DNA from: Planctomycetota bacterium
GTDB lineage: Bacteria; Planctomycetota; UBA1135
DNA length: 64,000 nt
Direction of reading: 5' to 3'
Assembly: GCA_029941685.1 (NCBI GenBank)
Contig: JAPYTC010000001.1
Span: forward strand, 2,381-66,380
Each line of letters starts with the position of its first letter. Position 1 is the stretch's first letter. This document shows positions 38,779 through 62,499 of the stretch, piece after piece. The notes beneath the pieces were generated by a model. It was given only the letters and a program-made list of their open reading frames with translations. It had not been told where the DNA came from and did no database searches. Position numbers and translations under genes: made by a program.

Positions 38779-38832
38779 TTCCTACAATACACAAAACCCC
38801 CTATCTTAACTTAGGGTAAAATAGCCGCCGTC

Positions 38833-39807
38833 ATGACCGCCTCCGACCCCAACTCCCGAGGCCAACAAGTTTTGCGCCTCGAAGCAGAAGCACTGTTGGC
38901 ACTCAGCGAAAATCTGCCGGCCAACTTTGCTGTCGCTTGCGAATTGCTAGCCGCCTGTAATGGCCGCGTTATCGTTAGTGGAATGGGCAAAGCTGGCATT
39001 GTTGGCCAAAAAATATCTGCGACCTTAGCGAGCACAGGCACCCCAAGTCTGTTTTTGCACCCTAGTGAGGCTTTGCACGGCGATCTCGGACGTCTACGGC
39101 AATCTGATGTGGTATTGGTTTTATCTAACAGTGGTAAGACCCAAGATGTTTTACGGTTGTTGCCAGCCATTAAATCTATTGGCGCAAAATCAATCGCGAT
39201 CTGCGGCGATTCGAGCTCACAGTTGTCGCAAAATTGTGATTTGGTTTTAGACATCGGCCTTCGCCCTGAAGCTTGTCCTTTGGGCTTGGCGCCAACTGTA
39301 AGTACAACTACGATGTTGGGCATGGGTGATGCTCTAGCAATGGCGGTACTTGAATTACGTAACTTCACCCGCGAAGAGTTCGCGCGCTTTCACCCCGCTG
39401 GAGCTTTGGGCCGCGAATTTATGGTGGTTAGCGAGATAATGCGCGAGAACGAGCATTTACCGCTTATTAAAAGCGGGACCGAATTACGCCACGCGCTTAC
39501 GGTCATGACCACAACCCCCGGGCGCCCCGGTGCCGCGCTGATTGTCGACGAAAACCAGCAACTGCTCGGAATTTTTACCGATGGTGATTTGCGCCGCCTT
39601 GCCGATAGCGGCCAACTTCCTTTATGTGAGTCGACTGATTTGCACATGGCGAAAACTCCAAGTGTGTTACGCGAAGATGTGTTGGTAAGCGAAGCGTTGC
39701 GTATGTTCAAAGATTTACACGTCGACCAAATGCCTGTAATCGGCGCTGATGGCAATAAGGTTGTTGGCTTGGTTGATATTCAAGATCTTCTCGAGGTACG
39801 CGTTTAA
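38833..39807 (+). CDS. kdsD: arabinose-5-phosphate isomerase (KdsD/KpsF)
   Basis: 324 aa with a SIS domain (VSGMGKAGIVGQKISATLASTGTPSLFLHPSEALHGDLG) and a CBS pair. Confidence 0.9.
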   Translation: MTASDPNSRGQQVLRLEAEALLALSENLPANFAVACELLAACNGRVIVSGMGKAGIVGQKISATLASTGTPSLFLHPSEALHGDLGRLRQSDVVLVLSNSGKTQDVLRLLPAIKSIGAKSIAICGDSSSQLSQNCDLVLDIGLRPEACPLGLAPTVSTTTMLGMGDALAMAVLELRNFTREEFARFHPAGALGREFMVVSEIMRENEHLPLIKSGTELRHALTVMTTTPGRPGAALIVDENQQLLGIFTDGDLRRLADSGQLPLCESTDLHMAKTPSVLREDVLVSEALRMFKDLHVDQMPVIGADGNKVVGLVDIQDLLEVRV

Positions 39808-40307
39808 TGTCCAACGAACTTGGCCAACGCGCTAGTCAAATAAAGTTGTTCGTCAGCGATATTGATGGCGTATGGACTGACGGCACCGTAATCATGAATG
39901 CCGATGGTGGCGAGTCTGTTGTCTTTTCCATCCTTGATGGCTTCGGTTTAATCTCACTGATGCGCAATGGCATTGAAGTCGCGGTTATTTCTGGACGTAA
40001 CAACCCCGCTGTAGCTGCACGCGCCGACAAGCTAGGCATCAAAGAAGTTCATCTGGGGTTTTTGAATAAGGGCGAGTTAATTCAAAAAATTATTGCCGAA
40101 CGAAATTTACTCCCGTCGCAAGTTGCCTCAATTGGCGACGACCTACCTGATCTTGAAATGTTCGAGCACAGTGGTTTATCTTTTGCGCCACCAAATGCTG
40201 TTGCTGAAGTTAAAGTAGCGGCCGATTATGTATGTACAGCCGCCGCCGGGCGTGGCGCCGTACGCGAAGTTTGTGACCTACTTCTAGCCGCACAGTCTGC
40301 CGGGTAA
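39807..40307 (+). CDS. kdsC: 3-deoxy-D-manno-octulosonate 8-phosphate phosphatase
   Basis: 166 aa with the HAD motifs FVSDIDGVWTDG and IGDDLPDLE. A TAATG overlap links it to kdsD. Confidence 0.9.
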   Translation: MSNELGQRASQIKLFVSDIDGVWTDGTVIMNADGGESVVFSILDGFGLISLMRNGIEVAVISGRNNPAVAARADKLGIKEVHLGFLNKGELIQKIIAERNLLPSQVASIGDDLPDLEMFEHSGLSFAPPNAVAEVKVAADYVCTAAAGRGAVREVCDLLLAAQSAG

Positions 40308-42670
40308 TGCGCCGTAATCTCCGCCTACTTGGGTTCGCAATTGTTGTGACCACTATCCTGCTACTTATCTCCGACCTGCTCAAGCACTCGGTGGGTGCGG
40401 ATGATGTGCAGTTCAAGTCAAAGCCAAGTCCGGCCGGATTTAGTCACGACTTAACAGGCACCGGAAAAATCACCACCGCCTTTGCTGGGCGCGTAACGAT
40501 AATTGCTGAAGAAAGCAAAGTAGATGATGGCGGCGGTAGCACTTTTGCCCCGCGCTACCGAGTTGAAGGTGACGACCCCACCCCCAGTGCTGGTGGCATG
40601 ACCTTGTCCACATCCGTTATTGTCTCAAGCGAAAACGCTTCTGATGCCTCAAAAGGCTTTCGCGTTGATGCTCCCGAATGCTGGCTGCCTATAGACAAGA
40701 AGTCTTCGACCTTGCGCTTCGACTTTAACGAGCTTTGGCAATTAACCAAGCCTATATTTTCTATAAACGATTTTGGCAAGGGCGGCACCTTAACCATTAA
40801 GTCAACTTTGGCGCAGTTAGACCCACAAACCAACCTTGTGGTCACTGAAGGCTTCTTTACCCTTGATGTTGGTGACCTACACCTTGAGGGGGAAAGCCTT
40901 ACCTTAAACCCAGAAACTTCGAGCATTGAGTTTACTCCATACCATGGTGCTTTGCGCTGGTCTATTCGCAACGCAGATGGTCAGGTTATCACCGGAGACA
41001 GTGACGGCCCTGGCTCTTTCGTCGCTTTAGAAAATGGTGATTATTTACTAACCATCAATTCTAAAACCTCGGTACGTACCCAATTCCCCAAGGGCGCAAG
41101 CATTGTTGGCGACATCGAAACCCCACTATTAAAGTTACGGCTCGCGCCAAGCGACAGCGGCAATTGGCGTCCACGAATAGCAACGCTTGCGCAACCAACT
41201 TTATGGCACGGCGAAACACTGCAGTTGCGCGGAGCGGACTCCACAATAAGTTGGTTAGGTAATGGCACGCTTAACGACTTTATTATTAATGGCCCGATTA
41301 ACGTGGTGCCGAACAACGGCGCGTTTATTAAAACCTCCGCAAGTAAATATGCACAATTATTCGCAAATGAAAATGTTGTGCATTTAGCCGGCGACGTCAC
41401 CATTCATCGCGTTGACGGTTCCGTGAAGGGCAACTTGGCCGTGCTTGGCAACAATACTCTGGCCATGCAGGGCGCTGTCTCCGTTATTGGCGATCGTGGA
41501 ACCGCCACCGCTGATAAGTTTTCAACTGACGCCGATAATAACTGGCAACTAGATGGCTCGGCTTACGTCAATCCCGCCGATGATCAAATTGGGTGGCTGT
41601 CTGCCGACCACTTAAGCTTTTCCGCCGACGGTGTTATTAATGGCGCAGGTAATTTTTTAGCCGAATTAGAAATAAGTGGGCGTCCTGCTAAACTCGCTTG
41701 TGATAAATTCGTTTCGATTCCCGGAATGCGCTATAAAGCCAACAGGGTTATGCGTGACAACAGCGCAAGCGGCAATGTGATCGTTGAGTCAAGCGATGGT
41801 GTGGTTTTCGGCGACCTGTTAGACCAACTCGATGACCAGCGTTATTTAATTCGCGCCAACGATGGCAATACGGCTTACGGAACAATTCGCGCCGAACAAC
41901 AGGAAGTCTCTTTTCGCGCCAACAGTATTCTTTATTCCAAAGAGCAGGTGGTTTTCTCTGAAAGCCCCTTAGTTAAGGTCCCTGTTGGCGAACTGGGCCT
42001 AGCTAAAAAATCTGTAACTTTGGTGGCCAACAAAATCGTTCTTAATCTCGGCCAACAATTGTGGACGGCGACGAAAGACGTGTTGCTTTCTGGGGCTATT
42101 GTTGGAAACTGCCAATATTTAAGCTTCAGCTCAAATAAGGTTGTTTTACGAGGAGGATCCGCCAAAGACAATTCATTATGTGGCGCCTCGACAACTTTTG
42201 CTGATCATTCTCGCATAGACCTCGAGGGGGATTTAATTGAATATGTTGTTGGTAGGTCTTTGATTGTTAATGACAACGTTTATGTAAAAAGAGTTTCTGA
42301 AACCACCGACTGGTTGCGCTGCGAACAATTGAATGCGACTAACGAGGGTGGGCATGCAAGCGGGGATGTTGAGGCCTTGTTTGCTCAGAGCAGCATGACC
42401 TGTCGTTCTGTTGATTGGACGCGTGACGATGGTGGCGAGAATCTTGTTTTAAGTGGCAATCCTCGCCTAGACCACCCCCAAGCAACTGTTGATGGGCACC
42501 GAATCGAGCTCTCCCCCAAACAATCCACCATCACCGCACACGGTGACGCGCAAAACCCAGCAACTATTAAACGCGTTAGTGGCCAAAGCGCTAGTGGCTC
42601 ATGGATAAAATACAATTATGATACTCAAAGTTTAAATGCACAACGCGCCACCTTTGAAGACAAACCATGA
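40307..42670 (+). CDS. large membrane-anchored periplasmic beta-rich protein in the lptC/lptA position (function unproven)
   Basis: 787 aa with a single N-terminal TM helix (LLGFAIVVTTILLLISDLL) and no further hydrophobic helices. A TAATG overlap links it to kdsC and an ATGA overlap links it to the LptD-like gene. Confidence 0.75.
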   Translation: MRRNLRLLGFAIVVTTILLLISDLLKHSVGADDVQFKSKPSPAGFSHDLTGTGKITTAFAGRVTIIAEESKVDDGGGSTFAPRYRVEGDDPTPSAGGMTLSTSVIVSSENASDASKGFRVDAPECWLPIDKKSSTLRFDFNELWQLTKPIFSINDFGKGGTLTIKSTLAQLDPQTNLVVTEGFFTLDVGDLHLEGESLTLNPETSSIEFTPYHGALRWSIRNADGQVITGDSDGPGSFVALENGDYLLTINSKTSVRTQFPKGASIVGDIETPLLKLRLAPSDSGNWRPRIATLAQPTLWHGETLQLRGADSTISWLGNGTLNDFIINGPINVVPNNGAFIKTSASKYAQLFANENVVHLAGDVTIHRVDGSVKGNLAVLGNNTLAMQGAVSVIGDRGTATADKFSTDADNNWQLDGSAYVNPADDQIGWLSADHLSFSADGVINGAGNFLAELEISGRPAKLACDKFVSIPGMRYKANRVMRDNSASGNVIVESSDGVVFGDLLDQLDDQRYLIRANDGNTAYGTIRAEQQEVSFRANSILYSKEQVVFSESPLVKVPVGELGLAKKSVTLVANKIVLNLGQQLWTATKDVLLSGAIVGNCQYLSFSSNKVVLRGGSAKDNSLCGASTTFADHSRIDLEGDLIEYVVGRSLIVNDNVYVKRVSETTDWLRCEQLNATNEGGHASGDVEALFAQSSMTCRSVDWTRDDGGENLVLSGNPRLDHPQATVDGHRIELSPKQSTITAHGDAQNPATIKRVSGQSASGSWIKYNYDTQSLNAQRATFEDKP

Positions 42671-44982
42671 TTTTAGAATTAAGCACCCTATGCTTGTTGC
42701 TCTTGCAAATACAGCAGCCGGATCCCAACATTGAAGTTGAGGAGAGCGGCTTAAGCTTAGGTGCTGATTCAATAAGTAGCACCGATATCGAGAATGGCAT
42801 TCGTTACGAGCTTGAAAACTTTCAATTGTCGACAGAGAACTTACAACTCAGTGCACAAAGTGCGGTTGTCGAGATCTGTAGTGCTGCAGATGGTGCCGCT
42901 GACTGCGACGTTGCCTGGGGAGCAGCGCTGCTACGCGGCTTAGGTTTTGACAGCGATAATAATAGCTTACAGTTGGTAGAGATTTCGAACGAGGTAATGT
43001 TTAAAGACCCCCGTTTCCAAATCAGCGCCGATAAATTAATTTTGCGTCCTAATGAATCGATTAGTGAGTTTATTGAAGTACGCGCAACCTTCGCCGATAA
43101 TACTATTGGGCCGAATGGGTGGCCGATATTAATTACCGCCGACAAGTTGCTTGAAATGCCGGGTGGTGTTCTCGAGTTTCACCACTGTACTTTTTCTACT
43201 TGTCTTAATGAGCCACAGCACTACAGCACTTCCTTTAAGTTGTTGCGTGCTACAAAATTGGGTGATGGCCGAATGTCTTGGCAGTCCCAAGGGGCTTGGT
43301 TAAATATTTATGGCTTGCCACTACTGCCGCTTCCCTCGCCAGACTTTGTTGACGGCGAAGACTTTCTCGGGCTTAAAAGTATAAATTTTGGCTCGTCAAG
43401 AATCACGGGCAATGTCATCACTCCAAAATTCGGTGGCAAGACCGAGTTTAATGAACAACGCAATCTCGACTGGAGCATTAGCCCGGGTTTTTCTGACTTA
43501 CGTGGACTGCCTCTTACTTTCGATACAACCTATATTGATAAAGATTACTTCAGCTCACTGAAAGGGTTTTTCTTGAGCGACCGTTCAAGCGACTTTCATA
43601 GGTTGGGTGACTCGATTGCCCGCGAAAATGATCAACGCTACCTCGTAAACTGGCACAATCATTGGCAACTTGATAAACGCTGGGCGCTTAATGCTGATTT
43701 GGCGTTAATGTCAGATCACTTGGTATACCCTGAATTTTTCTACAAAGATTGGATCAATAATGATGATGCCGAAAGTTCTATAGAACTCTTTAATCGCGCA
43801 GACAACCATTTTTTTTCCGCAGCCTTCACCTTTCCTAATCTGGGCGCGGGATATACCCCACTCGCTGGCTTCGCCGCAGCTCCGGGCGCTCAAGGACAGT
43901 ATTTATCGTACCAACCGCGCGCAAAATACACCTCTCACGCCATATTGGGTGAGGGATGGCGCCCAAGTTGGTTGAACACTTCTTGGGGTATGGAAGCTGG
44001 GCGCATGACCCTGCAAGATTATGGGATAGATAGCGCAAGCTCCATCGGCTATTTGTCGAACCCCAGTGCTTCAAGATCACGCTTTTCGTCTTGGGCAGAT
44101 GCCCGGGCAAACTTCAGTATTGGTGGCATTAATTTGGCACCAGCGGTAACGATACGTGCTAGTACGTGGCGTGATTCGAGTCCTGTAGTGTTAAACGACC
44201 AACAGCTTTTCGTTGAGTCTAGTTTAAGTAGCAACGCAATTCTCATTCAACGCTACGACGATGGCTGGACCCACAAAGTAATTCCGAGCATCAGTTTGCG
44301 GTCCCAACATGCCTTTGTGGCGGCCGATAATACTCCTCGGGATTTTGACGGCAACGATGTCTTACAGGAAGGCCGCCTCGTCGAATTATCAATGCGCCAG
44401 TTCTTTTATGCGCCCAACGCTGACAGCCCGTGGCTCGACATGCAATTGCTGCAACCCTATTATCTAACTCCTTCGACCGCACTGGGTTCATCGTTGATGC
44501 CGTTTCGCACCACAAATGTCGATAGCGGATTGGGGCCTAGCGAAATGCGCATGAAGTGGACGCCATCCGCGTATGGGGGCGCGCTTAAAGGGATGTCGGT
44601 GCTAATGAATATGCGCTATGACTTCGAGGCGGATCGCGTCGACGAGGTTGTTGGTCAAATAAGTATGCGACCCGATTCTAATTACTTTTACGGCGTAAAT
44701 TATTTGGAGACAAACGGCACGGCACTAGATTTCGCGCTCGGCTCAGCTTATGCCGGACTACGAATCTCTGAAGAGTGGGCGTCGTCCATCCGTAAGAGCC
44801 GAAACTTCTCTGGTGACGCGGGGTTTTTCTCAACCTGGGAAGTCACGCATTATGGCCACGACTTTAGTTTCGAGGTGGGTTATACTCGCGTAGAATCTAC
44901 CGGCGCCGACGGCTTCTACTTTTCAATTTCGCCGCGCTTCGTTCACGACAAGTTTAACAGTTTTGATTACAACCCCCGCTAA
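42667..44982 (+). CDS. lptD: LptD-like outer-membrane LPS-assembly protein
   Basis: 771 aa with a signal-like N-terminus. The core segment HHCTFSTCLNEPQHY...GAWLNIYGLPLLPLPSPDF resembles the conserved LptD core. The C-terminal half is rich in aromatic/Gly beta-barrel-type strands (GFYFSISPRF). Confidence 0.6.
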   Translation: MILELSTLCLLLLQIQQPDPNIEVEESGLSLGADSISSTDIENGIRYELENFQLSTENLQLSAQSAVVEICSAADGAADCDVAWGAALLRGLGFDSDNNSLQLVEISNEVMFKDPRFQISADKLILRPNESISEFIEVRATFADNTIGPNGWPILITADKLLEMPGGVLEFHHCTFSTCLNEPQHYSTSFKLLRATKLGDGRMSWQSQGAWLNIYGLPLLPLPSPDFVDGEDFLGLKSINFGSSRITGNVITPKFGGKTEFNEQRNLDWSISPGFSDLRGLPLTFDTTYIDKDYFSSLKGFFLSDRSSDFHRLGDSIARENDQRYLVNWHNHWQLDKRWALNADLALMSDHLVYPEFFYKDWINNDDAESSIELFNRADNHFFSAAFTFPNLGAGYTPLAGFAAAPGAQGQYLSYQPRAKYTSHAILGEGWRPSWLNTSWGMEAGRMTLQDYGIDSASSIGYLSNPSASRSRFSSWADARANFSIGGINLAPAVTIRASTWRDSSPVVLNDQQLFVESSLSSNAILIQRYDDGWTHKVIPSISLRSQHAFVAADNTPRDFDGNDVLQEGRLVELSMRQFFYAPNADSPWLDMQLLQPYYLTPSTALGSSLMPFRTTNVDSGLGPSEMRMKWTPSAYGGALKGMSVLMNMRYDFEADRVDEVVGQISMRPDSNYFYGVNYLETNGTALDFALGSAYAGLRISEEWASSIRKSRNFSGDAGFFSTWEVTHYGHDFSFEVGYTRVESTGADGFYFSISPRFVHDKFNSFDYNPR

Positions 44983-45325
44983 ACTCTACGCCTTCATTGG
45001 CGGCGCTGAACTGCTTATCGTGGTTATTGTTGGCATCATGGTATTCGGATCAAAGTTTCCAGAAGTTATTCGGCAAATAAGCAAGCTCTGGTTTCGCTTA
45101 CGGCGAACCATGAACGACATTAAGCGCGAGACCGGGCTCGAACAAACCCTTGATGAATTGCGCCGTGACGTCGACCCCTTTTCGCCTTCTACATCTCACC
45201 CAGATTCGGTTGATGGCCAAGACGACGAAAGTGGTTCTGTCGAAGAAACCGAGGAAGCTGAGGAAGCCGAAGAGGCTGCGGTTGAGTTTATTCGTGACGA
45301 CGAACCGCCGTTAAAGTCCGAGTAG
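44963..45325 (+). CDS. tatA: twin-arginine translocase TatA/TatB-family protein
   Basis: GGAELLIVVIVGIMVFGSKFPEVIRQISK forms a TM helix with a hinge Gly, followed by an amphipathic helix and an acidic tail (EETEEAEEAEEAA). The TTG start at 44963 is uncertain. Confidence 0.75.
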   Translation: MITTPAKLYAFIGGAELLIVVIVGIMVFGSKFPEVIRQISKLWFRLRRTMNDIKRETGLEQTLDELRRDVDPFSPSTSHPDSVDGQDDESGSVEETEEAEEAEEAAVEFIRDDEPPLKSE

Positions 45326-48491: not shown

Positions 48492-49391
48492 ATGGTTCTC
48501 TCATACGAAGAAACTCCACTTTCAGATTGGTTTAAGAAAAACCGAATCACCATCACCCTAACAGTGCTTGTCATATTCGGCGGCAACGCATACCTCGAGT
48601 ACTGGCCGCGGATGCAAGCTCAAAACAACGCCGAATCTTGGTCTTTATACCAGACGATTAGCAGCGAAGTTGATGTGACTACCAATCTCAGTGAAAAGTT
48701 GGCACAAGCCGAGCGGGACCCGCTGACCTATCAATGGTTTGTCTACACCACGACCCGTTTAGCGCTGCAATCTAAAAACGCTGAAGCCCAAAGTATTCTC
48801 AAAACACGCCTCGAGAAACTAGCTAACTCTGATGACGCGCAAAATTGGGTGGCGAGCAGCAATGGGGAAACCCGTCCGATCGCCAATATCTTGCTGGATG
48901 CAATTAACGGAACCGGCATCGACACACCCAGATTCGACAACCCTACTCCAACCGGCCCAACCTATGTTGTCTCCCTAATGCTTGATGATACAACAAGTTA
49001 CGATATAACGATATCTACGTTCAGCGAGTCCATGGCTACGGTGAATCATTTTGTGGCCAATATTGACGGCCTTGTTGGCTCAGAAATTACCAACTTCAAC
49101 AATATCTCTCTTACGATAGAGAATGGCCTAGAAGAAGACGCCGCTGCCATCGAGATTGAGCGCACGCGACTGTTCCACGCTGAGGGTGTTTTATGCACGG
49201 TAGCCACCTCCGAAAGCGACGGTAGCCAGAAGGCCAACACCCTGCAAATTATGCTAAAAGACAACTTCTTCGCGGATGGGCAATCAACGGTATTCGGCGT
49301 CGTCACTAGTGGCCTCGATGAGTTAAAAGAGGCTCTTGCTGGCTTAGGCAACGACCAAACGCTAACCGTATCAGCTGTTACTGAAGCTTAA
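48492..49391 (+). CDS. membrane-anchored protein with degenerate cyclophilin-like C-terminal domain
   Basis: 299 aa with the TM helix ITITLTVLVIFGGNAYL. The C-terminal segment TVNHFVANIDG...GVL...SDGSQ...DNFFADGQSTVFGVVTSGLDELKEAL resembles cyclophilin PPIases only loosely. Confidence 0.5.
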   Translation: MVLSYEETPLSDWFKKNRITITLTVLVIFGGNAYLEYWPRMQAQNNAESWSLYQTISSEVDVTTNLSEKLAQAERDPLTYQWFVYTTTRLALQSKNAEAQSILKTRLEKLANSDDAQNWVASSNGETRPIANILLDAINGTGIDTPRFDNPTPTGPTYVVSLMLDDTTSYDITISTFSESMATVNHFVANIDGLVGSEITNFNNISLTIENGLEEDAAAIEIERTRLFHAEGVLCTVATSESDGSQKANTLQIMLKDNFFADGQSTVFGVVTSGLDELKEALAGLGNDQTLTVSAVTEA

Positions 49392-50293
49392 GAATTCAAT
49401 AGCTCGTCGGCCTCATTGCCGAGGCCAAGCCCCTGCACCATAGTATCCAGCGAGTCCAGGTCGCTAAAGTGGAGCACCACTTTACCCCCACCACGCACAT
49501 GGATCTTCAACTCGGACCTACAGCCGAGCTTGCGAGATAGTTTCTCTTGGAGCTCTGCCGCCCAAGCCGGCTTAGATGGGCGTGAGCGATGCGATGGAGT
49601 GAGTGTTCCCGCAACTATCTTTTTACACAGAACTTCTGTAGCCCTAACGGATAGGTCTTTGTCGATAATCTCTTTCTTTGCACGCGCCAATTCGGCCTCC
49701 CCGCCGAGCTGTAACATTGCGCGGGCATGACCGGCGGTTAATGTTCCACGTGAAACATCTTCCTGTAGTTCAAGCGGAAGCTCTAACAAACGAACGAGAT
49801 TCGCGACAGTTGGTCTTTTGTAGCCCAAACGATCCGCCACCTGTTGTTGCGTGAGGCCATAATCTTCGAGAAGGCGTTTACATGCTGTTGCGCGCTCTAT
49901 TGGGTCGAGATCCTCGCGTTGAATGTTTTCTATAAGCGCTAGCTCGAGGCGCTCCTCACCACTGATGCTGCCCTCGCGGACAATTACCGGAACTTTGCTG
50001 AGCTTGGCCAGAGCAGCTGCTCGCCAACGACGCTCGCCCGCAAGAATCTCATAGTTGCCATCAGGGTCTTGAGTGACTACGATGGGCTGCATCATTCCAT
50101 GCCGCCGTAGGGATTCGGCTAGTTTGTCTATCCCTCGCTCGGTGTGTGTTCGCGGTTGCTCACTACTAGGGCGCAAGGCGCTATGGTTTACCCATAATTT
50201 GCCGTCACTGGCGACCGTGTCGGTGGCATGGCGATTTGAAAGTAATGATCCGATGCCTTTTCCGAGGCGTTGTGGTGGTTTAGGTGGAGTCAT
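49388..50293 (-). CDS. parB: chromosome partitioning protein ParB
   Basis: 301 aa with GMMQPIVV, ILAGERRWRAA, LIENIQREDLDPIE and an HTH (LTQQQVADRLGYKRPTVANLVRL). Confidence 0.9.
   Translation of the reverse strand: MTPPKPPQRLGKGIGSLLSNRHATDTVASDGKLWVNHSALRPSSEQPRTHTERGIDKLAESLRRHGMMQPIVVTQDPDGNYEILAGERRWRAAALAKLSKVPVIVREGSISGEERLELALIENIQREDLDPIERATACKRLLEDYGLTQQQVADRLGYKRPTVANLVRLLELPLELQEDVSRGTLTAGHARAMLQLGGEAELARAKKEIIDKDLSVRATEVLCKKIVAGTLTPSHRSRPSKPAWAAELQEKLSRKLGCRSELKIHVRGGGKVVLHFSDLDSLDTMVQGLGLGNEADELLNS
49742..49757. promoter_or_regulatory. parS centromere site inside parB
   Basis: TGTTCCACGTGAAACA is a 16-bp near-palindrome. It differs at one position from the TGTTTCACGTGAAACA consensus and matches the classic variant found inside B. 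subtilis spo0J. Confidence 0.75.
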
Positions 50294-54791: not shown

Positions 54792-55610
54792 GTGGCCGTG
54801 CACATTGTTTCGATAATCAATCAAAAGGGTGGGGTGGGTAAAACCACTTCTGTCGCCAATATTGGTGCGGCTTTGGCCATAGCTGGGCATAAGGTTTTGC
54901 TCGTCGACCTCGACCCGCAAGCCCATCTCTCGATCAGCTTCGACCGTATGCCCGAGCCGGGCGATCCTTCGGTTTACACCATGCTAATGAATCAAAACAC
55001 TTTTGTTGATTTGATGCAACCAACCCAAACGGATGGGTTGTTTATTGCCCCAACAAATCTTGATCTCACCGGCGCCGAATCAGAACTTGCTGCCGAAATT
55101 GGTCGCGAGGGTATCCTTCATTTGGCACTACATAAGCTATCAAAAAGTGATGTCGCCCCAGATGTTGTGCTATTAGATTGTCCGCCTTCGCTCGGCACCT
55201 TATCGCTAAACGCGCTGGTGGCATCCGACTCGGTCATCGTTCCTTTGCAGGCAGAGTTTTTCGCACTTCAAGGAATGGCACAGCTGTTAGATGTTCTCGA
55301 GCGAGTTAAACAACGATTAAACCCCAAGCTCGAACTGATTGGCATTTTAATCGGCATGTTTTCCAAACAGCGTAATTTATCACGCGAGGTCTTGCAGGAG
55401 TTAGAAAATCATTTTGGCGAATTAGTCTTTCCAACGCAAATACGTGTAAACGTAAGGCTGGCCGAAGCCCCCTCTCACGGACAAACTATTTTCGAATATG
55501 CTCCCGAGTCGACCGCCGCCAAGCAGTTTGCTGAGATTGCTATTGAGTTGGCAAAACGTATCCGCCTAGACACCAATGAGCCAGCCCTGCCGTCCGCGAA
55601 TATCGTTTGA
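54792..55610 (+). CDS. parA: chromosome partitioning ATPase ParA/Soj
   Basis: 272 aa (GTG start) with the deviant Walker A NQKGGVGKTT. Other motifs are LVDLDPQ, LLDCPPSLG and ARLAEAPSHGQ-type RLAEAPSHG. Confidence 0.9.
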   Translation: MAVHIVSIINQKGGVGKTTSVANIGAALAIAGHKVLLVDLDPQAHLSISFDRMPEPGDPSVYTMLMNQNTFVDLMQPTQTDGLFIAPTNLDLTGAESELAAEIGREGILHLALHKLSKSDVAPDVVLLDCPPSLGTLSLNALVASDSVIVPLQAEFFALQGMAQLLDVLERVKQRLNPKLELIGILIGMFSKQRNLSREVLQELENHFGELVFPTQIRVNVRLAEAPSHGQTIFEYAPESTAAKQFAEIAIELAKRIRLDTNEPALPSANIV

Positions 55611-56745
55611 CGCTAATGCCGGAGTTCCGGTAACTTCGCGCGCGCTAGATAAGTTTGTAGAAATTGCTACTAACGTTTCAGCCAACCCCGCATCTAATAA
55701 TCAAGAGGGGCGGGCGGCGCAGGCGGTCATCGAAAAAAGTAAGTTACAAATTGCCGAAGCGCTTTCTTGCAGACCAGGCGAATTATTTTTTACAAGCGGT
55801 GCTACTGAGGCGAATAACCTTGCGATTCACGGCTTAATTGGTGATTTGGAGCAACAGTTTGGGCAGAGGCCAATATTGGTAAGTAGTAAGGCCGAACACC
55901 CGTCTTGCTTGGCCTACTTAAGGGTGTGGCAACAACGTGGATATAAATTGGAGTTGCTAAACCTCGATCGTCACGCAAGATTTGATTTAAGCGAGTATTC
56001 TTTTGACGACAGTCTTTGTTATTTAATTGTTGCCCAGTGGGCCAACAACGAAACGGGGGCGGTACAAAATATTGTGAAGTGTGCTGCTGCGGTGAATAGC
56101 AATGTTCGTTGGCATTGCGATGCCGTGCAAGGTATTGGTAAAATTGCCTTTGACGACACCCTGTTGTCTAGTGATAGTTTCTCTCTTTCTGGACATAAGT
56201 TTGGTGCGCCCAAGGGTTGCGGTTTACTACGGCTCAAAAACCCCGGCGCTTGCGGTCCGATGTTTTTTGGGGGTGGCCAACAAAACTCTGTGCGGCCCGG
56301 AACAGAGTCTCCCGCCCTGGCTGCAAGCTTAACGGTTGCGCTATTAGACGCATTGGATCTTCAGGCTAGTGCTGAAAATATTTGCCTGCAATGGAAGCGG
56401 TCCTTAGTGCGCGCACTAACCGAAGGTGACATTTCATTTATAACTAATAGCCCAAAAGATAATTGTTTGAGCAACACTCTAAATATTAGTTTCCCAAATC
56501 TAGATGGACGAATGATTTTGCCCGCTTTAGATATTGAAAAAATTTCTTTATCGGCGGGCTCTGCTTGTGCGTCTGGAGCGGCCCTCGCGTCAAGCGTATT
56601 ATTGGCGTCTGGGATAGGTGAAAAATTAGCGCAAGCCTCTTTACGAATTAGCTTTAGGAATACATACCCGAATCATGACGTCGACAAAGAGGTGCAACGA
56701 CTCGCATCGGCCATCAACAGGCTATACAAAGTTGCAAATCCTTAG
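55576..56745 (+). CDS. cysteine desulfurase (NifS/IscS-like, class V aminotransferase)
   Basis: 389 aa with FTSGATEANNLAI, the PLP lysine SLSGHKFGAPKGCGLL and the active-site Cys SAGSACASG. It overlaps the parA end by 35 nt. Confidence 0.85.
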   Translation: MSQPCRPRISFDANAGVPVTSRALDKFVEIATNVSANPASNNQEGRAAQAVIEKSKLQIAEALSCRPGELFFTSGATEANNLAIHGLIGDLEQQFGQRPILVSSKAEHPSCLAYLRVWQQRGYKLELLNLDRHARFDLSEYSFDDSLCYLIVAQWANNETGAVQNIVKCAAAVNSNVRWHCDAVQGIGKIAFDDTLLSSDSFSLSGHKFGAPKGCGLLRLKNPGACGPMFFGGGQQNSVRPGTESPALAASLTVALLDALDLQASAENICLQWKRSLVRALTEGDISFITNSPKDNCLSNTLNISFPNLDGRMILPALDIEKISLSAGSACASGAALASSVLLASGIGEKLAQASLRISFRNTYPNHDVDKEVQRLASAINRLYKVANP

Positions 56746-56880
56746 TTGTTATTATTTATAGCCTTACAGGGTCATAATAATTAATTATTTTGATGGTTCC
56801 GCGGTGTTGATAAAGTATTGATCAAGTAAGTGACATACCCACTAAACTCTTGAAAACAAAAGGCTTACGACCGCCCCCTA

Positions 56881-58245
56881 ATGAACAAAGAATTAAAAAT
56901 AACCTGGAAAAAGGCTCTTTATGAGCTGGAACGCCTGATGGGGGTTGATAATGTTGATGCTTGGGCGCGGAACACAGAATTGGTGGCATATGCCCCTCCG
57001 GCTCGCGCCACGATTGAGGTGCCCACTCGAATGCACTTCGAGCGCTTGCGTGATTTGTTTCATGACGATATCGAGCAAGTCCTCGGTGTTAAACACATCG
57101 AATTTGAAATTGTTGAAAAGTTGGCCGAAGATCTTCTAGAACATATCTCGCAAGAAGGCAATGCTGCCCTGGTTGAAGAGCGAAACGGTAAAGTCTCTAA
57201 GATTGTTAAAAGCGCCAACAATGTTTTGCGCCTTAATAAATCATATATCTTCAACAACTATGTGGTGGGGGGATTTAATCGTTTCGCCCAAATGGCTGGC
57301 CGCGGCATCGTCCAAGAGCCAGGCAAAGACTTCAATCCCTTTTTCATTCACGGCGAATCCGGACTCGGTAAAACGCACCTAATGCAAGCAATTGCGCATG
57401 CAATAAACGAGGTTAGGCCCGAGTTAAAGATTGTTTATCTAACCTGCGAAGAGTTTCAAAACCATTTTGTAAGTGCAATTCGCGAAGGCAATGTCCAGGC
57501 CTTCCGTGATCGTTATCGTGATGTTGATGTTTTCGTTATCGACGACATTCACCACCTAGTGGGTAAAGAAAAAACCCAGCAAGAGTTTTTCCATACCTTC
57601 AATGCTCTTTACCAAGAAAACAAACAAATTATTTTATCGTGTGACTGCAAACCTTCAGAAATTGAAGGCCTCCACAGTCGTTTAATTTCACGCTTTAACT
57701 GGGGCTTGTCAGCAGAAATAAAAGCTCCCGATTTCGACGATAGTGTGTCTATTTTGTTAAATAAAGCCCATTTGCGCGGTATTCAGCTCGATACTGGTAT
57801 TGCGCAATTCATTGCAAAACGAGCTGGCAGTAACATCCGAGAATTGGAAGGCTGTTTAACTAGCCTACACGCTCGTTCACGACTTGAAATGCGCCCCATT
57901 TCGCTTGAGATGGCTGCAGAAAACATGCCTGGTTTCACGCCAATCAAAAAGATGTGTACCATTGGTGCGATCTCACAAGTTATTTGTGAGTATCACGACA
58001 TAGAGCTTGATGCACTCAAAACAAAGTCGCGACAATCGACTCGGGTTGAGGTGCGCAATATCATCATTTACTTGGCCAGAAAGTTAACAAACATGTCGCT
58101 TAAAGAAATTGGTGGTTTCTTCGGTGGGCGCGACCACAGCACAATCAAGCACTCTCTATCTAAGTTAGATCGGCGCATCATGGTAGATGATCAATACGCT
58201 GACTTCATCCAAACTTTAGAGCAAAAGGTCTTAAAATCGATTTAG
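56881..58245 (+). CDS. dnaA: chromosomal replication initiator protein DnaA
   Basis: 454 aa with the Walker A GESGLGKTHLMQAI, VFVIDDIHHLVGKEKTQQEFFHTFNAL, SNIRELEG and a C-terminal DNA-binding domain (GGRDHSTIKHS). Confidence 0.95.
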   Translation: MNKELKITWKKALYELERLMGVDNVDAWARNTELVAYAPPARATIEVPTRMHFERLRDLFHDDIEQVLGVKHIEFEIVEKLAEDLLEHISQEGNAALVEERNGKVSKIVKSANNVLRLNKSYIFNNYVVGGFNRFAQMAGRGIVQEPGKDFNPFFIHGESGLGKTHLMQAIAHAINEVRPELKIVYLTCEEFQNHFVSAIREGNVQAFRDRYRDVDVFVIDDIHHLVGKEKTQQEFFHTFNALYQENKQIILSCDCKPSEIEGLHSRLISRFNWGLSAEIKAPDFDDSVSILLNKAHLRGIQLDTGIAQFIAKRAGSNIRELEGCLTSLHARSRLEMRPISLEMAAENMPGFTPIKKMCTIGAISQVICEYHDIELDALKTKSRQSTRVEVRNIIIYLARKLTNMSLKEIGGFFGGRDHSTIKHSLSKLDRRIMVDDQYADFIQTLEQKVLKSI

Positions 58246-58314
58246 AAATGACCCGTACCGCACTTAAACCCAAGTCCATTCACTGGCTTGGGTTTTCTCT
58301 ATTACAGGATAAGT

Positions 58315-58323
58315 TGTGGACAA
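58315..58323 (-). promoter_or_regulatory. DnaA box (1 mismatch)
   Basis: The plus strand reads TGTGGACAA, which is TTGTCCACA on the minus strand. Confidence 0.5.
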
Positions 58324-58446
58324 ATAGTGGACTAAAGGGGACAAATATCGCCTTTTCCCACAAGCCTTACACGCCAAAGCCCACAAAGGAAATTGTTATA
58401 AACAATCGAATTAGTTATAGTTTTTTTCCCGACATTAACCTACATC

Positions 58447-58455
58447 TTTTCCACA
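58447..58455 (+). promoter_or_regulatory. DnaA box (1 mismatch)
   Basis: TTTTCCACA compared with the consensus TTATCCACA. Confidence 0.5.
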
Positions 58456-58522
58456 CAGACAAAACACAAACACAATTTTGTAAACCTTGTAAAACACGGA
58501 CCTTAGGAGCACAGTTAAGGCT

Positions 58523-58531
58523 TTATCCACA
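58523..58531 (+). promoter_or_regulatory. DnaA box (perfect consensus)
   Basis: TTATCCACA read directly from the sequence. Confidence 0.7.
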
Positions 58532-58596
58532 GCTTTGGCTCTACTATACTACTACTTCTAATTTCTTTAACATCTAATAAAGAATAACAATAAAAA

Positions 58597-59733
58597 ATGC
58601 ACTTCCTCGTTGATCGATTAGCTTTCCGTAATGCTCTGCAAAGGGTTGAAATGGGTATTGACCGAAAACCCACAAATCCGATGTACGGAGGCGTCCTTAT
58701 CGAAGCTCAAAACGATAGCTTAGTTTTAATGACAAACGATCTCGACATGTCCGTTCGTTATCGTTTAGATTTTGTACAGGTAACGCAGCCCGGCTGGGCT
58801 GTCATTCCTGGTCGCGAGTTGGTCGATATCATTAAAGATTTAGAATCCGATACGGTAACAATTACTCTGACAAAGAACAATCAGGTTGAGTTACGAGCCG
58901 GTGACGACCTATGCACATTGGTTACATTAGATTCAAGTAATTCAAGCACTGCCGAAAAATCGGAAAGCTTTCCAGTAGCTCCTTCGTGCGACGTTGAGCC
59001 TGACGTGGTTATGGAGAAAAACGATTTCTTAACCATGGTCAACTCAACACGATTCGCCACGTCGAAGGTACAGAATTCTCGTTTTGCAACTGAAGGAATT
59101 CTTATGGAGGCTAAAGAAGATCGCATGACCATGGTTGGCACCGACGGTCGCCGACTCGCTTGCATTTTACGTAATCTTTCATCTGAATCATCAGGCTCGC
59201 ACCGCGCTGTGTTGCTGCCAAAAGTTTTAGATCAGATTTATCGCTTTGGCCAAGATGAAGACGGCGAAGAAATTAGCATTTGGTATCTTGGTAATCAAGT
59301 CGGATTCAAAATTGGCAACCTAGAATCATTCGGGCGTGTGTTAACCGGAGAGTTTCCAGATTACTCACAAGTGCTAAATATTTCCGGTTCTAGTTCAATT
59401 AATGCTCACCGAGAATCGTTTACTAAAAAGTTACGCCTAGCAAGTCACCTTACCAATGATTCTGCTGCGGTTGTGCGTTTAAAACTAAGTAATAACAATA
59501 TGGAAATCTGTTCCGAAACAGATGGGCGTGGTCGTGCTTCAGCTAACTTTGAAGTTGATTACTCTGGTGATGAAATAAATACCGCATTCAATCCTGTGTT
59601 CCTCATGGAGGGTTTGAAAGCCGCACATAGCGAAGCAATCGAGATCCAACTCGAAGATGCTGCGCATCCAGCAAAGTTTATTCTTGGTAATGATTTCTTT
59701 TACATCGTCATGCCATTAAGCTCGTTGGTTTAA
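58597..59733 (+). CDS. dnaN: DNA polymerase III beta sliding clamp
   Basis: 378 aa. The N-terminus reads FRNALQRVEMGIDRKPTNPMYGGVLIEAQNDSLVLMTNDLDMSV, with a three-domain clamp pattern. Position after dnaA supports the call. Confidence 0.95.
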   Translation: MHFLVDRLAFRNALQRVEMGIDRKPTNPMYGGVLIEAQNDSLVLMTNDLDMSVRYRLDFVQVTQPGWAVIPGRELVDIIKDLESDTVTITLTKNNQVELRAGDDLCTLVTLDSSNSSTAEKSESFPVAPSCDVEPDVVMEKNDFLTMVNSTRFATSKVQNSRFATEGILMEAKEDRMTMVGTDGRRLACILRNLSSESSGSHRAVLLPKVLDQIYRFGQDEDGEEISIWYLGNQVGFKIGNLESFGRVLTGEFPDYSQVLNISGSSSINAHRESFTKKLRLASHLTNDSAAVVRLKLSNNNMEICSETDGRGRASANFEVDYSGDEINTAFNPVFLMEGLKAAHSEAIEIQLEDAAHPAKFILGNDFFYIVMPLSSLV

Positions 59734-59734
59734 A

Positions 59735-60067
59735 ATGGCTGATAAAAAAAGATACTGTAAAGAAGCTGTACCCATTAATACTATTGTAAGTGATGTGTTT
59801 AGTAAAATGGGTGTCTCGCGCGGCACCGAACACCGTATCGTTTTTGATGCCTGGAATTCCATAGTTCCACCGAAATTTAAAAACAAATGTCGCGCATTGT
59901 CATATAGAAATGGACGATTCATTGTCGAAGTTCAATCTGCACCGTTAATGCAAGAATTAAGATGTTTTCGCCAGTCAGAATTTGTTTTGCTACTCAATCA
60001 AGAAATTCGATTCAACACTAACAATCAAAGTCTATTTGTTAAGAAAATCGAATTCAAATCAAACTAA
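59735..60067 (+). CDS. DUF721 (DciA-like) protein
   Basis: 110 aa. VFDAWNSIVPPKFKNKCRALSYRNGRFIVEVQSAPLMQELRCFRQSEFVLLLNQEI fits the DUF721 pattern (W..IV...., dG.L.V.v.s..w..eL). It lies between dnaN and gyrB. Confidence 0.8.
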   Translation: MADKKRYCKEAVPINTIVSDVFSKMGVSRGTEHRIVFDAWNSIVPPKFKNKCRALSYRNGRFIVEVQSAPLMQELRCFRQSEFVLLLNQEIRFNTNNQSLFVKKIEFKSN

Positions 60068-60072
60068 TAAAC

Positions 60073-62499
60073 ATGTCCGAAGATAATAAAGAATACAGCT
60101 CCAGTTCAATCAAGTTTTTGAAAGATCTAGAGGGAGTACGCATGCGCCCCGCCATGTACATTGGCGATACTGCCGAACGCGGTTACCACCATCTATTGTG
60201 GGAGGTTGTCGACAACTCTATCGATGAGGCCTTAGCGGGGCACTGTGACATTGTTACGGTGACCTTAAACAGTAATGGCTCTGCGACAGTACGAGATAAT
60301 GGTCGTGGCATTCCTGTTGAGATGCACGAAGAAGAGGGTGTGCCGGCGGTTGAATTGGTAATGTCAAAGTTGCACGCTGGAGGAAAGTTCGACAACGACG
60401 CATATGCAGTTTCTGGTGGATTGCACGGTGTTGGTATTTCCGTAGTAAATGCTTTATCAGAGTCTACTGTGGTAAATATTTACAAAGATGGCGTCGAGCA
60501 CCACATCACATTTTCTCGTGGTGTAAAGGAAACGGATCTTAAAACAATTGGCGATACCACCGAACAAGGAACACAAGTAACCTTTACGCCAGATACCAAG
60601 ATATTCTCACATAGCGGCTTCGATTGGGAATTAATTTGCAATCGTTTACGTGAGATGTCCTACCTTATGGGCACAACGGGTTTAAGGATTATTATTGACG
60701 AAGAGTCGACGGGACGCCACGAAGAGTTTCATCATCCAGAGGGGTTGGTGGCTTACATTAATGATATTTCTGCAGGTAAAGAAGCTATTACTGAAGTCAT
60801 CCACTTCAATAAAGAAGTGCAGCACGAGAAGGGAAAGTATGGTGTTGAGATTGCGATGCGTTACACCAACGATTGGCACGAAGGAATCTATTCTTTTGCC
60901 AATAACATTCGAACAGGCGAGGGCGGAACCCACCTTACGGGGTTTAGAACCGCTTTAACCCGCACATTTAATACCTTTGTTAAGAGCAATAATTTAGTTA
61001 AAAAGGGCGAGTCGCCAAGCGGGGATGACTATCGTTCTGGATTATATGCAGTCATATCAATCAAAATTCCTGATCCACAATTTGAAGGACAGACCAAAAG
61101 TAAATTAGGTTCGCGCGAGGCAACCGCCATTGTTGACGGCGTTGTTACAGAATGCCTAGGTATGTACCTAGAAGAAAATCCAGAACCAGGGCGTTTGATA
61201 ATCCGTAAAGCTATGTTGGCACGCGATGCACGTGATGCAGCGCGCAAGCAACGCGACTTAGTTCGCCGTAAAGGGGTGTTATCTTCAGGATCCCTGCCAG
61301 GGAAATTAGCTGATTGTCAATCTAAAGATACAACACTTACCGAATTGTACATCGTTGAGGGTGATTCGGCGGGTGGCTCAGCAAAGACCGGTCGTGATCG
61401 TCGTTACCAAGCTATTTTGCCTCTTAAGGGTAAAATTCTTAATGTCGAAAAGAATAATGCTAATCGCATTTTAGCCAACCAAGAATTACAAACGATGATT
61501 CAGGCTATTGGTGCCGGAGTAGGTGAAGATTTTGATCATAAGAAATGTCGATACGGAAAAATTATCATCATGACAGACGCCGATGTTGATGGCTCACATA
61601 TTCGCACATTGATTTTGACCTTCTTCTTCCGTCAGATGAAGCCAATGATTGAAGCTGGACAGGTTTATGTTGCCTGCCCACCACTTTATAGAATCAACAA
61701 GAAGGGCTCAAAGGCATATCAGTACATTCATGATGACGACCATCTCCGTGAAATGCTAAAAGAACAGTCGGTAGCGGATACTACACTAACTTTTGCAAAT
61801 GGGGCCAAGTTCAAAAATAATGACTTAGAGCCAATTCTAGATGCTCTACAACGCCTCGCCCAATGTACACACTCCCTTAAGGGTGGTAGCCGCGGCGTTG
61901 TTGCGGAAGAGTATTTGGCACAAGTTAATGAAAACGGTGAATTACCGATGTCGATGATTCAGCATGTTGACAGCGGAAAGAAGGTTTTCTACTACAACGT
62001 AACCGATTTTCACACTGCACAAGATGAGTATCAAAACATCTGGAGTTTAACCAGTACTGAGGTAACTCGCGATCAAGCAGATTATCTTGCATTCCAATTT
62101 AACGAAAAACAGGCCGCTCAGCGCCACCTAGCTATTTTAATAGAGGGTGGTGTTAGTTTTACCACAGTGCTTGACGACTCAAACACAAGCGCCTTGTTTA
62201 CCCTAGAACGCGATGGTGAGGCGGTAAGCTATCATAAGCTAATTGAATTAGTCGCGGCTTTCCGCGACTTCGGGATGAAGGGCGTAGAAGTGCAGCGCTA
62301 CAAGGGTTTGGGCGAGATGAACCCGGATCAGCTGTGGGAATCTACCATGGACCCAGAGTTGCGTTTTATGAAACGCGTCATTCTGGACGATGTTTTAGAG
62401 GCCGACAAAACATTTACGATGTTGATGGGAGACGAAACTGCCCCGCGCCGTGAATACATTGCCGCTCATGCACACGAAGTAGGCGATTTGGACGTTTAG
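60073..62499 (+). CDS. gyrB: DNA gyrase subunit B
   Basis: 808 aa with GLEGVRMRPAMYIGD, HHLLWEVVDNSIDEA, GGLHGVG, the Toprim motifs ELYIVEGDSAGGSAK and IMTDADVDGSHI, and a C-terminal YKGLGEMNPDQLWETM-type motif. Confidence 0.97.
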   Translation: MSEDNKEYSSSSIKFLKDLEGVRMRPAMYIGDTAERGYHHLLWEVVDNSIDEALAGHCDIVTVTLNSNGSATVRDNGRGIPVEMHEEEGVPAVELVMSKLHAGGKFDNDAYAVSGGLHGVGISVVNALSESTVVNIYKDGVEHHITFSRGVKETDLKTIGDTTEQGTQVTFTPDTKIFSHSGFDWELICNRLREMSYLMGTTGLRIIIDEESTGRHEEFHHPEGLVAYINDISAGKEAITEVIHFNKEVQHEKGKYGVEIAMRYTNDWHEGIYSFANNIRTGEGGTHLTGFRTALTRTFNTFVKSNNLVKKGESPSGDDYRSGLYAVISIKIPDPQFEGQTKSKLGSREATAIVDGVVTECLGMYLEENPEPGRLIIRKAMLARDARDAARKQRDLVRRKGVLSSGSLPGKLADCQSKDTTLTELYIVEGDSAGGSAKTGRDRRYQAILPLKGKILNVEKNNANRILANQELQTMIQAIGAGVGEDFDHKKCRYGKIIIMTDADVDGSHIRTLILTFFFRQMKPMIEAGQVYVACPPLYRINKKGSKAYQYIHDDDHLREMLKEQSVADTTLTFANGAKFKNNDLEPILDALQRLAQCTHSLKGGSRGVVAEEYLAQVNENGELPMSMIQHVDSGKKVFYYNVTDFHTAQDEYQNIWSLTSTEVTRDQADYLAFQFNEKQAAQRHLAILIEGGVSFTTVLDDSNTSALFTLERDGEAVSYHKLIELVAAFRDFGMKGVEVQRYKGLGEMNPDQLWESTMDPELRFMKRVILDDVLEADKTFTMLMGDETAPRREYIAAHAHEVGDLDV

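Follow-up and report, generated by a model that had tools for sequence, protein, structure and literature searches.

How does lipopolysaccharide (LPS) cross the periplasm in a bacterium where the position that lptC and lptA hold in Escherichia coli, directly after kdsD and kdsC, is filled by one much longer gene? The question is raised by a stretch of 64,000 nucleotides (nt) from a Planctomycetota bacterium (GenBank assembly GCA_029941685.1, contig JAPYTC010000001.1, positions 2,381 to 66,380 of the forward strand), the whole of which is referred to here as the window. Within positions 38833-44982 it carries four open reading frames (ORFs), all on the + strand, encoding KdsD, KdsC, a protein of 787 amino acids (aa) that we call X and a 771-aa LptD. 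In E. coli, the membrane-anchored LptC, LptA and the N-domain of LptD are homologous OstA-type jellyrolls, which meet at their edges and make up a continuous bridge of antiparallel strands (PMC3944529), and an original prediction, made from the DNA letters, had suggested that the long protein might replace the first two of these with a single chain. Here, we describe the fold, domain series and conservation of X, which is probably a covalently fused LptC+LptA(n) periplasmic bridge that delivers LPS to LptD as one polypeptide, before then weighing the other readings and setting X beside known systems.

A translationally coupled cluster around X

The three junctions between the four ORFs, GTTTAATGTCC, GGGTAATGCGC and ACCATGATTT, hold TAATG, TAATG and ATGA stop/start overlaps, in gene order. 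Both the ORFs and these overlaps lie exactly where the original prediction had placed them, and X does follow directly on kdsD-kdsC, in the lptC/lptA slot that it had been assigned. The co-directional genes are as follows:

38833-39807, + strand: kdsD-type arabinose-5-phosphate isomerase with SIS and CBS domains, 324 aa, the first gene of the cluster
39807-40307, + strand: kdsC-type Kdo-8-phosphate phosphatase of the HAD superfamily, YrbI family, 166 aa, its start overlapping the kdsD stop (TAATG)
40307-42670, + strand: X, membrane-anchored multi-jellyroll protein, 787 aa, identified from the ORF, AlphaFold and Foldseek
42667-44982, + strand: lptD, outer-membrane LPS translocon, 771 aa, with an ATGA overlap with X
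44963-45325, + strand: TatA/B-family gene, the last co-directional gene, overlapping the end of lptD by 20 nt as called

Oppositely oriented genes flank the cluster, M50 peptidase-like upstream and MoCF-biosynthesis-like downstream. Base composition is unremarkable over the region, and a promoter and terminator scan of the cluster gave nothing beyond the expectation from shuffled sequence. A 185-aa ORF with a GTG start (38811-39368, - strand) runs antisense within kdsD; its translation is rich in Arg, Ser and Pro and of low complexity, and it is in all likelihood a spurious shadow of the kdsD frame.

X is an anchored chain of Lpt-type jellyrolls

The anchor of X was judged by hydropathy and by the helix of its AlphaFold model. 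One hydrophobic segment, at residues 7-25, reaches a Kyte-Doolittle value of 2.47, nowhere else does the protein reach 1.6, and the model places a helix at residues 2-27 followed by strands, in agreement with the earlier description of a protein with one transmembrane helix that is otherwise beta-rich; the strand-turn-strand peptides pointed out in that description are present in the translation. All 41 full-length relatives (41/41) have the N-terminal hydrophobic segment, a second being found only in relative P0019, and barely (1.64). A near-invariant His27 stands at the end of the helix.

The model, built from 12 sequences, has a mean pLDDT (predicted local distance difference test) of 78.8 and a pTM (predicted template modelling score) of 0.62. 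Residues 144-784 form about 58 beta strands, mostly at pLDDT 85-95, with no helix there but one short turn. The strands are arranged as long antiparallel hairpins with two-residue turns, a pattern unlike that of a parallel beta-helix. Compared by Foldseek with the Protein Data Bank (PDB), the model matches the jellyrolls of the Lpt system: chains of E. coli LptA (2r19/2r1a) with a TM-score (TMt) of 0.70-0.76, a root mean square deviation (rmsd) of 1.9-2.6 Å over 121-133 columns and a probability of 1.00; Pseudomonas aeruginosa LptH (4uu4; TMt 0.72, probability 1.00); LptC (4b54_A, TMt 0.66, and 6mit_C, TMt 0.51, both at probability 1.00, in an output that does not name the module aligned); and full-length LptD (probability 0.99).

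Three other assignments of the fold were rejected. Rhs/teneurin structures ranked higher in the Foldseek output, at probabilities of 0.10-0.38 and TM-scores <0.1; these matches are spurious, the product of long beta alignments. A beta-helix adhesin, which the original prediction had named as an example of a fold that would count against it, is contradicted by the strand pattern together with the matches to LptA, LptH and LptC. An AsmA-like protein was set aside for the lack of any family or fold match: a Pfam scan of X and of 20 relatives gave nothing at E<=1 for AsmA, AsmA_2, DUF748 or TamB (DUF490), and no TamB/AsmA-type structure is among the 50 PDB fold matches listed for X.

The family signals in the sequence of X itself lie near or below their curated cut-offs and are ordered along the chain. 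The NCBIfam model of LptC (TIGR04409) scores 24.6 bits at residues 160-209 (cut-off 38), Pfam LptC (PF06835) 19.8 bits at residues 329-370 (cut-off 21), and the LptA model (TIGR03002) 27.5 bits at residues 707-757 (cut-off 71.7), with LptD_N (PF03968) at 12.7 bits in the C-terminal segment (cut-off 20.4). One family-consensus segment reaches 20.7 bits with PF03968, and the segment at the 463-596 module 19.5 bits. We then scanned 20 divergent relatives with Pfam and projected the matches through an alignment of 41 sequences onto the residues of X. LptD_N is above its cut-off of 20.4 in six of them (P0014 24.3, P0018 30.9, P0021 21.7, P0022 24.8, P0024 24.6 and P0028 24.0 bits), at three different positions along X, and LptC is above its Pfam cut-off of 21 in P0024 (24.9 bits, equivalent to X residues 158-209). 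Taken together, the projected matches fall at four separate places, LptC-type first and LptA-type last. The resulting map of X, on the + strand throughout, is:

40310-40387: N-terminal transmembrane anchor, residues 2-27 (AlphaFold helix 2-27, with the positive patch MRRNLR before the hydrophobic segment)
40427-40726: conserved juxtamembrane region, residues 41-140 (column conservation 0.5-0.58, almost gapless; pLDDT 31-55)
40742-40933: C-terminal part of module 1, LptC-type, residues 146-209, matching LptC model positions 103-172 in the projection (TIGR04409 123-172 = residues 160-209; Pfam LptC 103-166 in P0014, P0024 and P0035)
41285-41830: middle module(s), LptC/LptD_N-type, residues 327-508, with LptC model 70-117 at residues 327-374 (X itself and P0018) and LptD_N model 22-108 at residues 364-508 (P0022)
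41693-42094: LptD_N/LptA-type module, residues 463-596, matching LptD_N model 2-107 (P0018 at 463-572, P0014 at 481-596)
42311-42628: C-terminal LptA-type module, the proposed LptD docking end, residues 669-774, matching LptD_N model 16-112 (P0021, P0024 and P0028) and LptA model 88-135 (TIGR03002, residues 707-757)

Direct comparison with the E. coli proteins gives the same polarity. With query sequences 100% identical to PDB chains 2r19 (LptA) and 6s8n_C (LptC), residues 1-25 of LptC align weakly to X 1-25 and residues 78-190 to X 100-226 (E 0.012), and residues 94-137 of LptA (VVLTGNAYL...) align weakly to X 713-756 (LVLSGNPRL...). Segments of the X family profile also match each other in hhalign at probabilities of up to 89%, as expected of tandem related modules.

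How many modules there are depends somewhat on how they are counted. The sequence matches give at least four; about 720-750 periplasmic residues divided by about 130-145 per jellyroll give about five; and some 64 DSSP strands in X, compared with 16 in LptA, give four. X thus holds about 4-5 jellyrolls, an LptC-type first module and at least three of LptA/LptD_N type, and the original estimate of roughly four LptC lengths was right, if perhaps slightly low. The protein shares with LptC a single transmembrane helix and a periplasmic jellyroll, and differs from its single-domain architecture of about 190 aa in having 787 aa and at least four modules. Similarly, it superposes on the 16-strand jellyroll of LptA, which is a soluble protein with a cleaved signal peptide; the LptA-type modules of X are internal and C-terminal in a chain with a transmembrane anchor, and X is therefore not a soluble protein in the manner of LptA.

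The juxtamembrane region deserves separate mention. Residues 41-140 rank with the most strongly conserved stretches of the family, with invariant P42, G44, F45, G53, G61, G88 and P91, and probably make up the N-terminal half of the LptC-type module. Conserved as it is, the region is poorly modelled, and it may be a partner-dependent interface that takes its fold only against a protein such as LptF/G.

A conserved family and a conserved gene order

An exhaustive profile search of 1.84 billion proteins (E<=0.001) recovered about 43 representative clusters, fragments included, about a dozen of the sequences being shorter at 70-691 aa. The full-length members (n=41) measure 736-885 aa, with a median of 788 aa and a standard deviation of 23. 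Closest to X are 13 clusters of 784-790 aa and 50-100% identity from uncultured marine and other metagenomes, and repeating the search with a deep alignment (A3) returned the same 13. Named members of this close group are all called ‘hypothetical protein’ and come from metagenome-assembled genomes (MAGs) labelled Planctomycetota or Planctomycetes, and a precomputed Lpt domain is recorded in only two of the 13 clusters. Full-length homologues extend from 66% down to about 19% identity.

A genome scan with alignment A1 found four MAG loci, two of them incomplete. The order kdsD-kdsC-X-lptD-tat is unchanged in loci L002-L004 (X 54% identical), L010 (26%), L011 (22%) and L012 (19%); in L005 (66%) kdsD-kdsC-X is kept and the locus ends at the start of lptD. 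The 4-nt overlap between X and lptD, as ATGA, GTGA or TTGA, is present in 5/5 independent lineages, the other junctions ranging from -4 to +44 nt. Distant full-length homologues, the same gene order and an NTGA overlap kept in five lineages make the arrangement more than a chance observation.

The MAG labels themselves disagree: most are Planctomycetota, one locus (L007, JBLINB010000042.1) is labelled Myxococcota, and a partial LptD homologue (P0067) is labelled Rhodospirillales, probably through mis-binning or loose classification. With the labels in conflict, the assignment to a lineage rests on submitter names.

The partner gene encodes LptD

The 771-aa protein is LptD, as originally called from its core motif. 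It scores 26.9 bits with Pfam LptD (PF04453; gathering cut-off 22.4), and the 16.5 bits obtained with the enterobacterial equivalog model of NCBIfam (PRK03761; cut-off 683) are expected of so distant a phylum. The AlphaFold model, built with 11 homologues, is of moderate quality (pLDDT 60.6, the last ~85 residues <50), and LptD nonetheless accounts for 36 of its 36 best Foldseek matches in the PDB. The best of these, 9kn3_A, has an E value of 3.1e-21 and 737 aligned columns of 752 residues, and barrel-only ‘core complex’ structures are matched as well (e.g. 5iv8, E 5e-9, TMt 0.42). A search of the PDB with the sequence returned no Lpt chain, fold comparison alone succeeding. Two parts can be distinguished:

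42730-43329, + strand: N-terminal periplasmic jellyroll, residues 22-221 (strands at pLDDT ~80; aligned to LptD structures that include N-domains)
43429-44979, + strand: C-terminal beta-barrel, residues ~255-771 (long antiparallel strands at 255-756; last ~85 residues poorly modelled)

Two cysteines, C174 and C179, in the motif HHCTFSTC (window 43186-43203), are invariant in the LptD family (alignment A2), which has no cysteines near the C-terminus. In E. coli LptD, disulfides join the N-domain to the end of the barrel. This pattern is unlike that of the protein described here, whose redox-controlled assembly step may therefore differ from that of E. coli.

The two upstream genes tie the cluster to LPS. 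KdsD scores 287.7 bits with the KpsF/GutQ family model TIGR00393 (cut-off 203.7), 85.1 bits with Pfam SIS and 54.2 bits with CBS, of which there are two stretches; with the equivalog-level model it falls below the cut-off (285.7 vs 505). KdsC scores 140.7 bits with TIGR01670, the YrbI/KdsC phosphatase model (cut-off 106.95). Both enzymes act in the synthesis of 3-deoxy-d-manno-octulosonic acid (Kdo), the sugar that joins lipid A to the LPS core.

A proposed one-piece LPS bridge and its alternatives

An anchor, LptC-type and then LptA-type modules in one chain and a coupled lptD are most economically read as a fused bridge, and this is the likely function of X. By analogy with E. coli, the transmembrane helix would anchor the LptC-type module in the inner membrane, helix and module together docking on LptB2FG, the extractor. 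The three to four LptA/OstA-type jellyrolls that follow covalently would stack head-to-tail to give one continuous hydrophobic groove, and beta-strand augmentation would join the last of them to the N-domain jellyroll of LptD, whose gene comes next. The groove would be the path by which LPS is pushed from the inner to the outer membrane, with no need for free LptA or LptC. Bridge, translocon and LPS core synthesis could be kept in step by the coupled translation of X and lptD and by a transcript shared with kdsD and kdsC.

Together with the LptD N-domain, X would bring five to six OstA domains to the bridge. Four have been suggested to span the periplasm of E. coli (PMC3944529), and the bridge proposed here would therefore be somewhat longer. 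More tentatively, this could be a lineage without any free LptA or LptC, in which X is the entire bridge of about five jellyrolls at fixed stoichiometry, translational coupling matches its synthesis to that of LptD, and its length, conserved within ~3%, sets the distance between inner and outer membrane at LPS export sites at roughly 1.3-1.5x that of E. coli. The idea that such a protein might serve as a fixed-length ruler for an enlarged periplasm, which was already part of the original prediction, has the tight length conservation as the one observation that points to it.

Several results weigh against the fused bridge. X itself scores below the curated cut-off of every Lpt family model, a sequence search of the PDB with the X family profile returned no Lpt chain, and the X profile matches the neighbouring LptD N-domain only weakly (best probability 19%). 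Module boundaries differ between methods, and the count is correspondingly approximate, the jellyroll being itself internally repetitive; the number of ‘h-x-h-G-x-h’ motifs was considered as a stand-in for that of modules and abandoned as overly heuristic. The stretch up to residue ~140, where the interface of an LptC-like protein with LptF/G should be expected, is modelled at low confidence. Finally, lptB, lptF and lptG are absent from the 64-kb window, and none of its ORFs of >=150 aa carries an ABC signature motif; the original prediction had itself remarked that tatA, not lptB, follows, and the next gene is indeed of TatA/B type, the copy in the window scoring below the cut-off.

What other roles could X have? 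It might be an elongated LptC only, the link to LptD being completed by a separate soluble LptA encoded elsewhere. The clearest likeness of its N-terminal part is indeed to LptC, and outside Proteobacteria the Lpt genes are often dispersed (PMC8871954). However, the C-terminal module is LptA/LptD_N-like and not LptC-like, the 4-5 modules already equal or exceed the four OstA domains suggested for the periplasm of E. coli (PMC3944529), and translational coupling links X to lptD in all the lineages examined. Moreover, none of 10 other exported or unannotated proteins of the window matched LptA, LptC or LptE, and the scan of its other exported proteins turned up nothing OstA-like. We regard an elongated LptC as unlikely.

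A further reading keeps the Lpt-like groove and changes the cargo, making X a bridge-like transporter of, for example, phospholipids, the cargo of AsmA/TamB/YhdP-type proteins, or surface lipoproteins. TamB and YhdP resemble X in having an N-terminal anchor and then a long all-beta region, long alignments of low TM-score link X to the amphipathic beta-sheet of ApoB100, and a preprint reports an LptD homologue with a role other than in LPS transport (bioRxiv 10.1101/2022.12.21.521298), surface lipoproteins being the cargo proposed for the LptD homologue of Borrelia. A cargo other than LPS is nevertheless very improbable in our view: the family-level signals are those of LptC, LptA and LptD_N only, with no AsmA/TamB/DUF490 match in Pfam at E<=1 and no TamB among the PDB matches listed, and X always stands between the genes for Kdo synthesis and lptD. 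Or X might be a structural beta-rich protein of the periplasm, serving as a spacer or tether or resembling an adhesin, that handles no lipid and owes its likeness to Lpt proteins to a shared beta-sandwich fold. This would suit sequence matches that, for X itself, are mostly close to threshold or short of it, but is scarcely credible given Lpt-specific fold matches at probability 1.00 and an rmsd of ~2 Å, long antiparallel hairpins where a beta-helix would have short coils of three strands, and an operon tie to lptD and the Kdo genes that holds down to 19% identity.

Other features of the window

The TatA/B gene is always fifth in the cluster (window, L002, L010, L011 and L012), -47 to +10 nt from the lptD stop. 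The copy in the window scores 41.9 bits with the TatB model TIGR01410 (cut-off 56.5) and 15 bits with Pfam TatA_B_E; PF02416 is recorded for the orthologous gene in the four other loci. On the opposite strand, a gene of the DUF374 family (PF04028; 46721-47410, - strand) is a conserved neighbour in all related loci. DUF374 is often associated with Kdo transferase and LPS genes, and its presence here would add to the LPS-related content of the region.

A replication-origin neighbourhood lies at 54792-62499 (+ strand), and the GC content at 56-64 kb is low, falling from ~0.49 to 0.41-0.45. Its genes, with a parB to their left, are:

49388-50293, - strand: ParB gene, assigned by synteny with locus L002
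54792-55610, + strand: ParA-like gene (KGGVGKTT)
56881-58245, + strand: DnaA-like gene (Walker A at residue 158)
58597-59733, + strand: DnaN-like gene
60073-62499, + strand: gyrB, with Pfam GyrB domains recorded on the identical gene in locus L013

In L013, a DciA-family gene stands just upstream of gyrB. Towards the other end of the window are a sulfatase gene (1729-3435) and genes for two large exported proteins, one of 1051 aa with DUF7133/GSDH, HEAT, cytochrome c and FGE-sulfatase domains (4712-7867, - strand) and one of 1020 aa, N-terminally anchored, with CarboxypepD_reg and Big_1 domains (12955-16017, - strand); all three are unrelated to the finding on X. No tRNA, tmRNA or other Rfam family was found at the gathering threshold in window positions 1-64000.

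Comparison with known systems

The idea of fused OstA domains is not new, and the original prediction somewhat overestimated its novelty. A 2014 review noted from Pfam architectures that many Gram-negative bacteria encode fusions in which as many as four OstA domains are joined (PMC3944529). Like X, these have several jellyrolls of the OstA superfamily in one polypeptide, and they were read as support for a bridge of stacked domains. Protein, lineage, anchor and gene context all go unnamed in that remark, whereas the family of X is defined, anchored by a transmembrane helix, LptC-type in its first module, translationally coupled to lptD and for the most part missed by Pfam. In the literature, we found no description of a transmembrane-anchored LptC-LptA(n) fusion, of the X family or of LptA or LptC in Planctomycetes. 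A survey with hidden Markov models describes the Lpt system of Planctomycetes as ‘largely reduced’ (PMC8871954). A divergent fused protein such as X could escape such surveys, and the LptC and LptA functions may thus be hidden in a protein called hypothetical. For annotation, the family gives a simple rule: a transmembrane-anchored, all-beta protein of ~790 aa between kdsC and lptD.

Two other kinds of long periplasmic protein invite comparison. Sexton and colleagues proposed that Thermotoga maritima G4FGC1 is a fused ‘pABC permease’ with LptF/G-, LptA- and LptD-like domains (PMC10160955). Like X, it would be a covalent fusion of Lpt modules, one proposed to move lipid from the inner membrane to the outer layer. 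Its fusion includes the permease and the LptD-like part and occurs in an organism without LPS, whereas that of X is confined to the equivalents of LptC and LptA, leaving permease and LptD as separate proteins, and has a gene context that points to LPS. The AsmA-like proteins TamB and YhdP share with X an N-terminal anchor, a long helix-free beta structure, a polypeptide of fixed length and a presumed lipid groove spanning the periplasm; X differs from them in being coupled to lptD and not to an Omp85-type partner, and in matching Lpt jellyrolls with no match to the AsmA family.

The closest parallel remains the LptC-LptA-LptD(N) bridge of E. coli, with which X has in common its place after kdsD-kdsC, a transmembrane anchor on the first jellyroll, the OstA-type fold and a polarity running from LptC-type through LptA-type modules to LptD. 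Sequence identity to LptA and LptC in the structural alignments is ~12-17%. The gene context diverges further on, X being followed by lptD and a tat gene and the kdsD-kdsC-lptC-lptA locus of E. coli by lptB-rpoN. The main difference, however, is one of covalency: one 787-aa chain of ~4-5 modules at fixed stoichiometry in place of a separate 191-aa LptC and 185-aa LptA that assemble non-covalently, the number of LptA molecules in the working bridge being given as unknown in the 2014 review (PMC3944529). A number of modules that is fixed and encoded in the gene offers a defined object for the structure of a complete conduit from inner to outer membrane, and the length of X can be compared with the width of the periplasm in cryo-tomography. 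If X is the sole bridge, it would be the natural, single-chain answer of one lineage to how many jellyrolls are needed.

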